This document shows positions 3,948 to 25,942 of a stretch of 64,000 bases of DNA, one piece after another (within the stretch, counting starts at the first letter, position 1; the number at the start of each line of letters is the position of its first letter). The notes under the pieces were generated by a model that saw nothing but the letters and a program-made list of their open reading frames with translations, had not been told where the DNA came from and ran no database searches. A program made the position numbers and the translations under genes. Source of the DNA: an uncultured Collinsella sp. (GTDB lineage: Bacteria; Actinomycetota; Coriobacteriia; Coriobacteriales; Coriobacteriaceae); assembly GCA_900541645.1 (NCBI GenBank), contig UQKQ01000001.1, positions 113,741-177,740 of the forward strand, written 5' to 3'.

Positions 3948-4013
3948 TGGGGACGTTCTTTTTCTGTCTGCAGTTTGGAACGTTCCTTTTCTGTCGGCAG
4001 TTTGGGACGGTCC
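3948..4013. repeat. Tandem ~31-bp repeat (2.3 copies), unit GGGACGTTCYTTTTCTGTCKGCAGTTTGG; same family as 60218–60253
   Basis: Direct reading; a related copy lies 3' of the HAD gene at 60218–60253. Confidence 0.55.
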
Positions 4014-4212
4014 TTAGAGCTGCAGCGCGCCATGAGTGACGAGGCTAAGCGGATCATCCTGTCTTTTGAGTTCTAAGCATAAGCCCCTGTCTCTGAGCAA
4101 TGACCAGTGCGCATTTGTGCGTATTTGCGTGCGTGGGATTGCGTGAATATGCGTATAGAAGCGACGTTTACGGGGCAAAAATGACCATTTAGCGGTGAGA
4201 TACGCAAAAAAG

Positions 4213-5370: not shown

Positions 5371-6117
5371 ATGCTAGCGGAAGATAGGCTCAACGCGATC
5401 GTGTCGATGGTTCAGCAGACCGGCTCGGTTACCGTGCCGGAGCTTGCCGAAGCCCTGGGCGTGACGGCGTCTACCATTCGGCGCGACCTGCAGATGCTCA
5501 ATCGCGCACACCGTATCGCCAAGGTGCACGGTGGGGCGACGAGCCTTGAGCGCGCGCACGTGACGCGCGACCTAACGCTTAATGAGCGCAGCGATCTCCA
5601 TAACGACGACAAGGAACGTATCTGCGCCCGTGCGGCGGCACTTGTGGAGCCCGAGAACTTTGTATACATCGACTCGGGTTCGACGACGCTCAGGCTCATC
5701 GAGCATCTTCCACACCTTGAAGATGTCACCTATGTGACCGATTCCGTGCTCCATGCTCAACGCCTTGCTTTGCGCGGCATGCGTACCGTGGTGCTGGGTG
5801 GCGAGCTCAAACCCGAGACCGAGGCGCTCGTTGGCCCCGATGCCTTGGCAACCTTAGACCGCTACAACTTCAACTGTGGCTTTTGGGGCTCTAACGGCAT
5901 TGCCGCCGAGCAGGGCTTCACGGCGCCCGATATCGAGGAGGCGCAAGTAAAGCGTATCTCGATGCGCCATACGGCCAAGCGCTTCGTAATCTCGGACGCC
6001 AGTAAATTTGGCATGGTGGCGCCCGTCAAGTTCGCGGACTTCCGTGACGCAACGATTATTACCGCAGGCGATGTCCCTGCCAAGTACCGGGCAATGGACA
6101 ACGTCATCACGGTCTAA
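5371..6117 (+). CDS. DeoR-family transcriptional regulator
   Basis: 248 aa. N-terminal HTH (VTVPELAEALGVTASTIRRDL) followed by a DeoR C-terminal sugar-binding domain. Confidence 0.85.
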   Translation: MLAEDRLNAIVSMVQQTGSVTVPELAEALGVTASTIRRDLQMLNRAHRIAKVHGGATSLERAHVTRDLTLNERSDLHNDDKERICARAAALVEPENFVYIDSGSTTLRLIEHLPHLEDVTYVTDSVLHAQRLALRGMRTVVLGGELKPETEALVGPDALATLDRYNFNCGFWGSNGIAAEQGFTAPDIEEAQVKRISMRHTAKRFVISDASKFGMVAPVKFADFRDATIITAGDVPAKYRAMDNVITV

Positions 6118-6140
6118 CAGCAAGGGACGGGCTAAGACCA

Positions 6141-6178
6141 AAACCACCACAAAGGTGCCTGTCCCCATTGTGGTGGTT
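6141..6178. terminator. Terminator-like hairpin (AAACCACCACAAAGG…CCATTGTGGTGGTT), copy 1 of a ~40-bp direct repeat
   Basis: Sits immediately 3' of the DeoR gene; a near-identical copy lies at 6511–6549. Confidence 0.5.
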
Positions 6179-6261
6179 AGTAACGAAAACCGAGTAGTTT
6201 TCTCAATAGAAAAGCGGCAACGTCCATCACGGGCGTCGCCGCTTTCGTTGTCTGCCGGTTT

Positions 6262-6480
6262 GTCTAAGTCTGTAACAACTGGACCGTTAAAAGTGGGCTA
6301 GGTGTTACAGATCGAGATACTTACGAACCGCGCCGTCCCTTTGTCTCAATCTGTAACATCTGGGACTGATTTTGCCGAGTTACTGTTACAGATTGAGATT
6401 ATTCCCTTGAGGGGATTCGAATGTCTCGATCTGTAACAGATAGACCGGAAAATGGGTTCTAACTGTTACAGATCGAGACG
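6262..6480. repeat. Array of 5–6 copies of the 15-mer TGTTACAGATCGAGA in strictly alternating orientation (~40-bp spacing)
   Basis: Copies at 6304(+), 6345(-), 6384(+), 6424(-), 6464(+), with a partial copy at ~6268(-). Low-GC stretch between convergent genes. Confidence 0.6.
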
Positions 6481-6510
6481 TTTTGGGACCGCGGCTGAGC
6501 CATTGCGGCA

Positions 6511-6549
6511 AAACCACCATAAAGGTGCTTGTCCCCTTTGTGGTGGTTT
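6511..6549. terminator. Terminator hairpin, copy 2 (AAACCACCATAAAGG…CCTTTGTGGTGGTTT); overlaps the rluA stop codon
   Basis: Direct repeat of 6141–6178 with 4 mismatches. Confidence 0.5.
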
Positions 6550-7207
6550 AGGGCTCCCAGGGGCAGGGGGCTTCGATGTGGATGTGCTCGCCGGTTACGG
6601 GATGCGTAAAGGACACGCTGTGGGCATGGAGCATGAGGCCGCAGGGGCGCGGCGTTCCGTACAGGTCGTCGCCAACCAGGGGATGATGCTCGCTTGCCAG
6701 GTGCACGCGAATCTGATGCTTGCGGCCGGTGAGCAGCTCGACATCAATATACGAGCGCGTGGGCAGGCCTCGACGGCTCTTAAGACGCTTGAGCACCTTT
6801 ACGCGTGTTTGAGACGGCTTGCCGCTGGCGCCGACGCGCATCTTTCGACTGTCGTGACGGTCGCGGGCGATGGGCTTGTCGATGAGCTTTTCGTTCCAGT
6901 CGATCTTGCCCTCGGCCAGCGCCAGGTAGTGCTTTTCGAACGCGTGGTCGATGATCATCTGATCAAAGGCGGGCTGCGTCTGCTTGTCGAGTGAGAACAG
7001 CACCACGCCGGTGGTGTCACGGTCCAAGCGGTTGAGCGGCTGCATGTCGGTCGCGGCAAAGCCGTCGCCCATCGCCAGCAGCAGGTCGCTGGCGTAGTCG
7101 GTGAGCGTGCGCTCGCCGGTGCCATCGCCGTGGACGATCATACCGGCAGGCTTGTCGATGGCCATGAGCCAGGCGTCGCAGTAGAGGACTTGAGGTTCTT
7201 CGTTCAC
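6548..7207 (-). CDS. rluA: RluA-family pseudouridine synthase
   Basis: 219 aa. Has the catalytic motif region HRLDRDTTGVVLF and the GRKHQIRVHL block. Confidence 0.85.
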   Translation of the reverse strand: MNEEPQVLYCDAWLMAIDKPAGMIVHGDGTGERTLTDYASDLLLAMGDGFAATDMQPLNRLDRDTTGVVLFSLDKQTQPAFDQMIIDHAFEKHYLALAEGKIDWNEKLIDKPIARDRHDSRKMRVGASGKPSQTRVKVLKRLKSRRGLPTRSYIDVELLTGRKHQIRVHLASEHHPLVGDDLYGTPRPCGLMLHAHSVSFTHPVTGEHIHIEAPCPWEP

Positions 7208-23072: not shown

Positions 23073-23141
23073 CAATGAGAATGGCGTAAAAACTACATTG
23101 AAAGTAGCGTAAAATCCGCATTGAGAATGGCGTAATTTCGC
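23073..23141. repeat. Three tandem 23-bp direct repeats (CATTGAGAATGGCGTAAWWW…), iteron-like
   Basis: Copies at 23073, 23096 and 23119 with exact 23-bp periodicity. Immediately upstream of the truncated ATPase ORF. Confidence 0.6.
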
Positions 23142-25810: not shown

Positions 25811-25942
25811 CGGAAAAGTGTCGAAATCAGCCGTTTAAAAGTACGGAAAAGTGTCGAAATAGGCACCTTAAAACTTCGGAAAAGTGTCAAATTCGATAGG
25901 CAAATTATCCGGAAAAGTGTAGCTGGATGACAAAACAGCACT
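25811..25942. repeat. Four tandem direct repeats with exact 33-bp periodicity; conserved 17-mer CGGAAAAGTGTCGAAAT plus a variable AT-rich 16-mer
   Basis: Copies at 25811, 25844, 25877 and 25910; iteron- or operator-array-like. Confidence 0.7.

Follow-up and report, generated by a model that had tools for sequence, protein, structure and literature searches.

What kind of element occupies the gap between the convergent genes of a DeoR/GlpR-family regulator and an RluA-family pseudouridine synthase in this Collinsella genome? The genus Collinsella is abundant in the human gut and very diverse, and its non-coding genome has hardly been described. An initial annotation of the locus had proposed an inserted non-coding element, either a MITE with duplication of the target terminator or a structured small-RNA gene. 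We found that the locus belongs to a Collinsella repeat family with a few dozen copies per genome, so that the inserted-element proposal stands as far as a non-coding repeat with further genomic copies is concerned. The array family is apparently undescribed, as literature searches on the motif and on Collinsella or Coriobacteriia repeats found no description of it.

Architecture of the locus

The window, by which we mean the whole 64-kb stretch of DNA analyzed, contains six copies of the 15-mer TGTTACAGATCGAGA within 6263-6478 that follow the pattern TGTTACAGAT[CT]GAGA. They start at 6263, 6303, 6344, 6384, 6424 and 6464 on strands -, +, -, +, -, +, a strict alternation with copies 40 or 41 nt apart, and carry between them 0, 0, 0, 1, 1 and 3 mismatches. 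The alternating 15-mers of the initial annotation are thus confirmed, and across the window we counted 7 matches versus 1.06 expected, a number reached by 0 of 100 shuffles. As had also been noted, the segment is low in GC (0.47-0.50 versus about 0.60 in the flanks), and both neighboring genes end here, with the 3' end of the DeoR/GlpR-family gene facing the repeat element and the two genes converging on the array (Table 1). The three long hairpins described earlier are present but consecutive rather than nested, and their loops, previously given as 25–28 nt, measure exactly 25 nt, with linkers of 26 and 25 nt.

Two near-identical hairpins in the same orientation enclose the array, CAAAACCACCACAAAGGTGCCTGTCCCCATTGTGGTGGTT on the left and a direct copy on the right that is 93% identical and lies 370 nt away from start to start; a hairpin pair of such quality arose in 0 of 100 shuffles. 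On the minus strand TTTTG follows the right copy, which is a plausible, putative terminator of rluA. The further terminator-like hairpin annotated at ~6211–6248 was recovered at 6211-6245, with 15-nt arms that are 87% complementary. It is part of the insertion/deletion described below, is kept in orthologs and was BLAST-matched at this locus only; a simple terminator scan made no call there because the T-run is short.

Table 1. Features of the array locus, in window coordinates.
Feature	Position	Strand	Details
DeoR/GlpR-family regulator gene, left neighbor	5371..6117	+	ORF; Pfam HTH_DeoR and DeoRC; C. aerofaciens ortholog annotated likewise
Left 40-nt hairpin, CCTGTCCC-loop family	6139..6178	+	Stem AACCACCACAAAGG / CCATTGTGGTGGTT
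Linker, locus-specific	6179..6210	.	BLAST matches at orthologous loci only; missing from empty alleles
Second hairpin, AAAGCGGCAACGTCC...GGGCGTCGCCGCTTT	6211..6245	.	GC-rich; terminator-like on both strands
Unit 1	6263..6317	.	Degenerate left arm TCTAAGTCTGTAACA (3 mismatches), 25-nt spacer with central AAAA, right arm TGTTACAGATCGAGA
Linker 1	6318..6343	.	26 nt; length fixed, sequence variable
Unit 2	6344..6398	.	TCTCAATCTGTAACA, 25 nt with central TTTT, TGTTACAGATTGAGA; arms 100% complementary
Linker 2	6399..6423	.	25 nt
Unit 3	6424..6478	.	TCTCGATCTGTAACA, 25 nt with central AAAA, TGTTACAGATCGAGA
Right flank, array to hairpin	6479..6508	.	Locus-specific
Right 40-nt hairpin copy	6509..6548	+	Abuts rluA stop codon
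RluA-family pseudouridine synthase gene, right neighbor	6548..7207	-	ORF, Pfam, C. aerofaciens ortholog

A family of phased arrays in Collinsella

The unit of the family is a 55-bp inverted pair (TCTCRATCTGTAACA, 25 bp, TGTTACAGATYGAGA) that recurs every 80 bp, with 1-8 units per array and a unit number that varies between species. A genome scan requiring an exact match to an 18-nt core yielded at least 120 loci, all on Collinsella-like contigs. Its output comprised Collinsella-like high-GC contigs with arrays plus low-GC chance matches and nothing else, and viral contigs were on this ground rejected as array carriers. The family has been found so far in Collinsella only; when we took a dxs homologue as a route to sister genera, the best 120 matches were all Collinsella proteins, at least 97% identical.

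Across loci the motifs are invariably spaced by 40 (39-41) nt, the motif 'tail' is always outermost at both array ends, and conservation is at least 95% at 13 of the 15 positions, whereas the 352 loops include 306 distinct ones. All arrays are intergenic. They occupy about 37 conserved sites across the genus, few of them seen only once, and every one of the 12 sites that could be mapped to a 900-kb piece of C. aerofaciens TSDC17.2-1.1 was filled. This replichore piece holds 13 arrays with 62 motif copies, confined to 402-877 kb (55% of its length). Single motif matches in the 900 kb numbered 18 versus about 22 expected by chance in our own calculation, and because single copies are not above chance, we consider the pair to be the functional unit. 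Divergent, convergent and tandem gene settings are found in about equal numbers, a mixture that points to no single role.

Neither TGTTACAGATYGAGA nor its extended form CTAgnTGTTACAGATYGAGAYa is self-complementary, and hairpin potential exists only between two separate 15-mer copies 25 nt apart. Each 55-bp unit is bounded by 15-19-bp inverted repeats, and the flanks of units and arrays prolong the inverted symmetry (WWTR / YAWW); neither direct repeats nor a consistent target-site duplication was found at these flanks. Loops and linkers have different consensus sequences, kcTAG..AAAA..CTAgn and YAWW..WWTR, respectively. Spacer identity was 0.53 within an array versus 0.51 between sites, and the between-site values of 0.51 for loops and 0.39 for linkers are the same as those within arrays. 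What all sites have in common is the 15-mer, the spacing and a weak consensus of the spacers, and no more. The 15-mer arrays recur in the genome; in a BLAST search, as suggested in the initial annotation, the non-array part (6179-6262) was found at this locus and its orthologs only.

Selection on the 15-mer sequence

At orthologous sites we observed 0.036 substitutions per site in the motif versus 0.133 in the spacers, and motif positions 12-14, which lie outside the search pattern, had 0-0.024 substitutions per site. Among 44 alleles of the present locus chosen through RluA, diversity (pi) was 0.0365 in the motif and 0.123 in the spacers (Mann-Whitney p = 8e-9); for rluA in those alleles, pi was 0.165 at fourfold sites and 0.015 at codon position 1. 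These values indicate that the 15-mers are under purifying selection in place, about as strong as that on protein-coding positions.

We found no covariation of the arms in 77 non-redundant units. Of all cells, 77.3% pair versus 79.0% in shuffles, and the arm covariation score was 0.135 versus 0.153 in shuffles, with 497 of 500 shuffles as high. The C/T position of the motif assorts independently between the two arms, and mirror positions in the loop are less complementary than chance. By these measures, selection appears to act on the sequence of the 15-mer and not on helix pairing. The A-tract of the loop can be on one strand or the other, and both orientations occur together in individual arrays. 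Fourier analysis of spacer A/T content gave its strongest term at 10.0 bp (permutation p = 0.001), a signal of one averaged profile that includes orthologous units.

A candidate protein-binding array

We tentatively infer from these patterns that the arrays may be duplex-DNA protein-binding arrays, BIME-like in logic without being members of REP/BIME. In this model the 15-mers would be candidate sites for a sequence-specific protein that reads duplex DNA, probably as a dimer across each inverted pair, and touches its neighbors along the array. The spacers would count only for their length and for helix-phased A/T tracts, including the central A3-5 tract, which would make the DNA curve around the protein. 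In this way the array would form a phased nucleoprotein structure between transcription units, like E. coli BIME arrays in logic, with topology, insulation and chromosome organization as candidate roles. BIMEs bind proteins such as gyrase and IHF, and BIME-1 has an A/T-rich IHF site between inverted REPs.

Among the neighbors examined we found no gene consistently linked to arrays and no candidate binder; flanking genes are unrelated. Genes enclosed by two arrays encode Nramp, an AAA ATPase, a kinase with DUF6273, FHA proteins and unknowns, for which Pfam, NCBIfam and PDB sequence searches returned nothing, and a linked effector gene was rejected given this diversity. Operator sites for the DeoR neighbor were rejected as well, the locus being just 1 of about 37 with unrelated neighbors at the others. 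Against the protein model, a simple helix-turn-helix protein would be expected to have a shorter half-site than 15 fully conserved bp.

Plasmid centromere and operator arrays, such as F sopC with its 12 units of 43 bp containing an inverted repeat, are similarly phased tandem binding units for one protein, on which a higher-order nucleoprotein complex is built. Those, however, are single loci beside partition genes, whereas the Collinsella arrays occupy dozens of chromosomal loci with no linked protein gene.

Flanking hairpins and array-less alleles

The 40-nt hairpins are not part of the array unit and form a separate structured, terminator-like family with an invariant CCTGTCCC loop. Like Rho-independent or REP-like terminators, they have a GC-rich stem between an A-run and a T-run, stand directly after stop codons and are usable on both strands. 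Unlike plain terminators, they share the invariant 8-nt loop across three stem types, with compensatory changes at 7 of 9 pairs, and form chimeras joined within the loop. As judged from the compensatory stem, the T-run and the gene-end position, the hairpins appear to fit an intrinsic-terminator or structured-hairpin family; termination alone does not explain the invariant loop across three stems or the in-loop chimeras.

About 20 copies of the hairpin family occur in the 900 kb of C. aerofaciens, mostly solitary at gene ends. Of the copies in array loci (8-kb windows around arrays), 40 of 42 adjoin arrays, and the notion that the hairpin is almost exclusive to array neighborhoods was discarded as an artefact of sampling these windows, most copies being solitary in the full 900 kb. 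Hairpins adjoin 29 of 124 arrays, about ten times chance placement by our estimate. Near arrays elsewhere they are mostly inverted, single or absent, and the direct 40-nt duplication is specific to this locus. In relatives, the left copy is sometimes inverted or missing, and the right-hand position holds H1, H2 or H1/H2 chimeras.

The empty-site comparison proposed in the initial annotation turned out as expected. Array-less relatives show one hairpin in place of hairpin, 330 nt, hairpin, and the difference between filled and empty alleles is precisely the insert together with one copy of the hairpin. The array is missing at 23 of 74 loci chosen through RluA, exactly one hairpin is kept in 10 of those 23, and partial deletion forms exist. 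On the rluA tree, empty alleles fall in scattered places. At the dxs site, where no direct hairpins flank the array, 11 of 11 contigs picked by way of the flanking gene were filled. The two direct hairpin copies would make the present locus unstable, and recombination between them would remove the array and one hairpin to give single-hairpin alleles. Such a deletion accounts for the polymorphism no less well than insertion does, and we consider loss by such recombination more likely than insertion of a MITE, while leaving the direction, loss or gain, undecided.

The reverse history is a possibility to which we give somewhat guarded weight. Here the single-hairpin allele would be ancestral, and a cassette of terminator, array and hairpin would have been inserted next to or into the resident hairpin, making the filled allele derived. 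The exact difference between alleles, the dispersal of empty alleles on the tree and the enrichment of hairpins beside arrays all fit this account. In addition, right hairpins are uniform, and a 'GCG' stem variant occurs in left copies and empty alleles and never in right copies, which also fits an inserted cassette that brought its own right-hand hairpin. Against insertion, the non-array parts of the insert occur nowhere else, so no donor is known, and the array is present at the site in more distant species (deoR 88-95% identical). The 40-base direct repeats, with intermediate deletion forms on record, favor deletion; the dxs site, free of such repeats, is fixed; and a 40-bp target duplication would be unlike any common transposase.

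Mobile DNA and RNA alternatives

A broader alternative, which we regard as unlikely, is that the 55-bp unit or the whole array is a selfish or relic element of the non-autonomous MITE or REPIN type, with the 15-mers as putative sites of a transposase encoded elsewhere. Arrays would grow by repeated insertion beside units and decay by deletion, and any effect on the host would be incidental. The family is multi-copy, strictly intergenic and so far known from Collinsella only, and its conserved inverted termini around a variable interior follow the classic MITE pattern. Unit number varies between species and presence varies at this locus, and the genomes carry many insertion sequences, including IS200/IS605, one copy of which lies inside an array. 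The terminal inverted repeats are as in a MITE, but near-identical copies at non-orthologous sites were not seen: spacers are saturated while the 15-mers remain under purifying selection at orthologous sites. Because selfish DNA does not predict such selection, selection in place argues against it, as do array positions conserved across species with few singletons. Nor is there a consistent target-site duplication around units or arrays, a transposase linked to arrays or an excess of single motif copies over chance. A MITE with duplication of the target terminator is likewise not the best reading of the present locus, given that different sites share only 15-mers, spacing and a weak spacer consensus.

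An action at the RNA level seems to us improbable. The arrays would be transcribed with neighboring mRNAs or alone, and their units would fold into 15-20 bp hairpins that would shield 3' ends, serve as RNase III substrates or retain a protein specific for the stem sequence. E. coli REP sequences stabilize upstream mRNA. Consistent with an RNA element, folding is far stronger on both strands of the array than in shuffles (z = -11.8 and -10.6), many arrays come right after a gene, and the stem is the same in transcripts of either strand because the unit is an inverted repeat. Pairing of the arms, however, is no better than column composition predicts and lacks covariation, G.A or T.C is found systematically at the position immediately inside the stem, and loops avoid complementarity. 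The units lack a following U-run, divergent genes border about a quarter to a third of the arrays, one array can contain A-tracts of both orientations, and a conserved sequence is not needed to protect mRNA ends.

Database searches gave no match beyond chance level to any Rfam family at E <= 10. Rfam 15 at gathering thresholds called only a SAM riboswitch in the whole window, away from the array, and the E-value search of 6000-6700 (E <= 10) returned chance-level microRNA-like matches only; the Collinsella-1 motif (RF01700) does not match the array. A consensus scan around the array found two weak promoter-like sites and no terminator. The structured small-RNA gene of the initial annotation is therefore disfavored, with arms that do not covary, an A-tract on either strand, no Rfam match and no convincing promoter or terminator framing the array. 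A sequence-specific protein that reads a hairpin of RNA or single-stranded DNA would also be compatible with the sequence.

We dismissed a coding function, since the 44-aa ORFs on both strands of the array are by-products of inverted repeats and a repeated peptide cannot be kept at a 40/80-nt period that is not a multiple of 3, and shufflon-like inversion of the 25-bp segments, since loop orientation is identical in all orthologous arrays examined. Short repeats, strictly regular spacing and constant-length spacers resemble CRISPR, but CRISPR has direct repeats of about 23-50 nt with unrelated spacers, a leader and cas genes, whereas these repeats alternate and measure only 15 nt, their spacers follow a consensus and are retained from species to species, and about 13 arrays occur per 900 kb; no cas genes were found beside the arrays examined.

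Relation to known intergenic repeats

The arrays resemble the BIME/REP clusters of E. coli and other Enterobacteria in being extragenic clusters of a short conserved sequence of alternating orientation, with head-to-head and tail-to-tail junctions that each have their own linker type and with copy numbers that vary per cluster (one to about a dozen in BIMEs). A REP, in contrast, is by itself an imperfect palindrome, measures about 35 nt, has a GTAG end, occurs in hundreds of copies and is linked to RAYT transposases, whereas the Collinsella 15-mer is not self-complementary, its linkers vary in sequence, and its arrays number tens per genome at conserved positions. In the 900 kb of C. aerofaciens no RAYT was seen, and the one Y1 transposase there, present twice, is the tnpA of an ordinary IS200/IS605 that has end hairpins of its own. 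One of its copies interrupts an array; considered as a RAYT, it was rejected as an ordinary insertion.

Pseudomonas REPINs also consist of two conserved short inverted sequences around a less conserved spacer, single or clustered between genes. REPIN copies, however, are alike over their whole length, as recent replicative spread predicts, and flank the RAYT gene, whereas in Collinsella conservation is confined to the 15-mers and is kept up in place among orthologous sites. BOX of Streptococcus pneumoniae and MIRU of Mycobacterium are likewise modular intergenic repeats whose internal unit number varies between strains, but these are direct repeats conserved throughout, unlike an inverted pair with an unconserved interior.

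Implications for Collinsella biology

The strong purifying selection on this family makes the arrays a handle for a candidate new DNA-binding protein. They also allow the long-standing question of the function of BIME-like arrays to be asked cleanly, in a lineage that probably lacks the REP/RAYT system. Arrays and hairpin modules give rise to strain-level length polymorphisms that are possible typing markers, and both are likely to mislead assemblers and the programs that look for repeats or CRISPR in metagenomes.

A more far-reaching proposal, which we consider rather doubtful, is that Collinsella may carry a genus-specific chromosomal nucleoprotein system that wraps or bridges DNA at phased 15-bp arrays, with the CCTGTCCC-loop hairpins as recombination-prone module borders. 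If this is true, a dedicated sequence-specific protein would act on a few dozen arrays between transcription units, with sites 40 bp and units 80 bp apart and with helix-phased A-tracts in the spacers, as an architectural or insulating device.

Organization of the array locus

Between the convergent genes for a DeoR regulator and an RluA-type pseudouridine synthase, we found six alternating copies of a 15-mer bracketed by two direct copies of a 40-nt hairpin that share 93% identity. Across the 64-kb window the 15-mer pattern matches 7 times, where 1.06 matches are expected; none of 100 shuffles reached 7. Start-to-start distances of 40, 41, 40, 40 and 40 nt resolve the array into three consecutive units in which a 25-nt spacer separates two 15-nt arms, with linkers of 26 and 25 nt between the units. 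The initial annotation had recognized this overall arrangement, including the additional hairpin near 6211 and the low GC of the segment, which drops to 0.47-0.50; its description of three nested hairpins with loops of 25-28 nt is replaced by consecutive units with 25-nt spacers.

Features of the array locus in window coordinates
Feature	Position	Strand	Basis or remark
DeoR regulator gene	5371-6117	+	converges on array region
40-nt hairpin, left copy	6139-6178		sequence
Further hairpin	6211-6245		sequence
15-mer TGTTACAGAT[CT]GAGA, six copies	6263, 6303, 6344, 6384, 6424, 6464	-,+,-,+,-,+
40-nt hairpin, right copy	6509-6548		direct orientation relative to left copy
RluA-type pseudouridine synthase gene	6548-7207	-	converges on array region

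The whole intergenic spacer is identical among contigs of the same species. On one metagenome contig (L002, 3279-4616), the 205-aa RluA is replaced after the array by a predicted 445-aa protein lacking any Pfam match, which may reflect a frameshift, a fusion or a misassembly. Elsewhere in the window, the sole Rfam match over the gathering score is a SAM riboswitch (RF00162, 25601-25691, minus strand, 45.1 bits). Short tandem repeats at 3953-4015 (27 bp x 2.3), 23076-23135 (23 bp x 2.6) and 25811-25892 (33 bp x 2.5), the last adjoining the riboswitch, bear no sequence relation to the array.

A family of phased arrays in Collinsella

Scanning one genome per species with the pattern TCTGTAACA-N23-27-TGTTACAGA identified at least 120 loci, bearing out the earlier suggestion of a repeated element. 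Among the matches listed, nearly all are labelled Collinsella and the remainder are unnamed bins or one differently labelled bin; the family has so far been found only in Collinsella. Typical Collinsella arrays lie on a contig of a bin labelled Acutalibacteraceae (CAVCBD010000014.1), a label that is probably an error of binning or labelling. Every listed locus has its motif copies grouped into arrays of 2 to 16, alternating as -+-+ with a spacing of 40 (39-41) nt. Arrays always start and end on the motif's tail side, which makes the head-to-head pair the unit; arrays of a single unit occur too. Conservation of the motif is at least 95% at 13 of 15 positions, with C or T at position 10 and mostly G at position 11. 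The spacers are largely distinct in sequence (306 of 352 loops and 202 of 229 linkers), but despite this variability they follow the consensus kcTAG-nnGcc-AAAA-cgGgt-CTAgn in loops and YAWW...WWTR in linkers. The 142 arrays among the matches listed group into about 22 neighbourhood families with about 37 distinct flank pairs, and few sites were met just once. Several arrays (L008, L014, L028, L030, L036, L049 and others) include an additional motif-like copy shifted by 8 nt, giving the pattern -+-++ with distances of 8 and 32; this variant of one unit recurs at particular sites.

For genomic context we analysed the whole of NZ_OY725717.1 (899,693 bp), a PLSDB record titled 'plasmid 6' of C. 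aerofaciens TSDC17.2-1.1 and described as circular. Ribosomal protein operons, rpoBC, dnaE, recA and ftsK mark it plainly as a chromosome fragment, not a plasmid; its cumulative GC skew is monotonic, placing it inside one replichore. We counted 13 arrays on it, comprising 62 motif copies; single motif matches (up to 3 mismatches) number 18, about the chance level of roughly 22 by our calculation. The 13 arrays are confined to 402,740-876,830 (55% of the record) and missing from the first 402 kb, a distribution with an estimated probability of about 5e-4 under uniform placement. Six array sites fall within 21 kb (402.7-422.7 kb) among FHA/DUF6273, P-type ATPase, gltB and Nramp genes. One of these six is a further array, downstream of the Nramp gene, that is interrupted by an IS200/IS605 copy (422,690-423,500) and reduced to the left arm and loop of a single unit; the tnpA of this element (WP_055287554.1) has an identical second copy at 533,435-533,893. 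The 13 arrays lie between divergent (3), convergent (5) and tandem (5) genes of unrelated functions, and a cruder count over all listed loci gave 39, 38 and 38, respectively. Every genus-wide array site that could be mapped to this record is occupied.

Selection acts on the 15-mer sequence

Point mutations distinguish orthologous arrays, whose spacers are conserved to the same degree as the flanks. Unit number at one site varies from 1 to 8 among species, and the shorter arrays are deletion derivatives carrying chimeric loops. Spacers are no more alike within an array than between sites (loops 0.53 vs 0.51; linkers 0.39 vs 0.39); it follows that the arrays neither arose by recent tandem duplication nor were recently copied from each other. 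At orthologous sites we counted 0.036 differences per site in the 15-mer and 0.133 in spacers, with 0-0.024 at motif positions 12-14, which lie outside the search pattern. An ascertainment-free sample of 44 three-unit alleles of the window locus, picked through the RluA protein, gave a pi of 0.0365 for the motif and 0.123 for spacers (Mann-Whitney p = 8e-9), with 32 of 90 and 87 of 126 sites segregating. Benchmarked against rluA (0.165 at fourfold sites, 0.015 at first codon positions), the motif is nearly as constrained as coding sequence, and the spacers evolve almost neutrally.

We then compared 77 non-redundant units, modelled as a 26-pair hairpin, to controls with shuffled 3' letters. Paired cells made up 77.3% of the units and 79.0% of the shuffles, and the covariation score was 0.135 compared to 0.153 in shuffles, of which 497 of 500 scored equal or higher. 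The two arms are independent of each other at the variable motif position, the pair immediately inside them is systematically G.A or T.C, and complementarity at mirror positions of the loops is below chance. The window array region folds equally well on either strand, a trivial consequence of inverted repeats. Selection is thus on the 15-mer sequence and not on a helix.

An independent hairpin family and probable array loss

The 40-nt hairpins belong to a separate element. Their loop, CCTGTCCC, is shared by at least three unrelated stems (CCACCAC/GTGGTGG, CCTGCC/GGCAGG and TGGTGCA/TGCACCA), and an alignment of 25 such hairpins has compensatory changes at 7 of 9 pairs, demonstrating a genuinely structured family. 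About 20 occur in NZ_OY725717.1, mostly solitary, directly past gene ends and bordered by A-runs and T-runs; only two adjoin an array. Genus-wide, 29 of 124 arrays among the matches listed have such a hairpin within 150 nt, about tenfold above chance by our estimate, and the association is partial yet real. Three CCTGTCCC/GGGACAGG loop motifs with TGGTGCA-type stems within about 90 nt (NZ_OY725717.1, 409,787-409,880) appear to form a small group of hairpins of the third type. The foot of the IS200/IS605 end hairpin (AACCACC...GGTGGTT) is similar to that of the 40-nt hairpin. We also observed chimeric hairpins, at 510,838-510,877 of the same record and in metagenome alleles L154-L233, that combine the left arm of one stem type with the right arm of another, with the junction exactly inside CCTGTCCC and loss of arm pairing, which points to the loop as a site of recombination or template switching.

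Searching metagenomes with RluA recovered 80 loci (98-100% protein identity), 74 of them with enough downstream DNA to judge. Three units were present at 44, other unit numbers at 7 and no array at 23, confirming that empty sites exist. Ten of the 23 retain merely about 25 nt and one hairpin copy between both stop codons (type-1 empty), 11 have a hairpin with inverted loop followed by a second-type hairpin, and in 2 the left neighbour gene differs. Filled and type-1 empty alleles differ by exactly a 330-nt insert plus one hairpin copy, and empty alleles are spread across the rluA tree. Across alleles, the left hairpin is present, absent or inverted, and the right end is either hairpin type or a chimera with its junction within the loop. 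We somewhat favor array loss through recombination of the two direct hairpin copies over insertion, because the non-array parts of the insert are found nowhere else, more distant species have the array at this locus, intermediate deletion forms are known, and the dxs site, a second array site that lacks flanking direct hairpins, is filled in all 11 contigs picked through its flanking gene. The same alleles might instead reflect gain of a cassette bringing its own hairpin.

Classification and proposed mechanism

The arrays are not CRISPR arrays. Nor are they a known or covarying RNA, and the small-RNA gene proposed in the initial annotation is probably incorrect. Its other proposal, a MITE with duplication of the target terminator, is also improbable, as target duplications and near-identical copies, expected of a MITE in the usual sense, are absent. 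Among known systems, the BIME/REP clusters of enterobacteria come closest: they likewise lie outside genes, alternate in orientation, have two types of linker, vary in copy number and bind proteins (putative in Collinsella). A defining feature of that system, a repeat that is itself a palindrome, is lacking in the Collinsella 15-mer, and we saw no RAYT in the 900-kb NZ_OY725717.1. Our literature search found no description of the family. We class it as an interspersed intergenic repeat array, marked unusually sharply by strong selection on the site, strict 40-bp phasing and spacers free to vary.

The central A3-5 tract of the loops occurs on both strands, mixed inside single arrays, and the strongest periodic term in spacer A/T content is 10.0 bp (permutation p = 0.001). 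Together with a motif conserved without covariation, these features fit a protein that reads duplex DNA, although a sequence-specific protein may instead recognize the hairpin form of the unit. Our best, still tentative, mechanism is the duplex one: a putative sequence-specific protein would read each 15-mer on duplex DNA, with spacers providing length and phased bendability, such that the array may constitute a series of phased protein-binding sites. At the window locus, the array is flanked by a duplicated terminator-like hairpin of independent family, which probably makes the locus prone to deletion.
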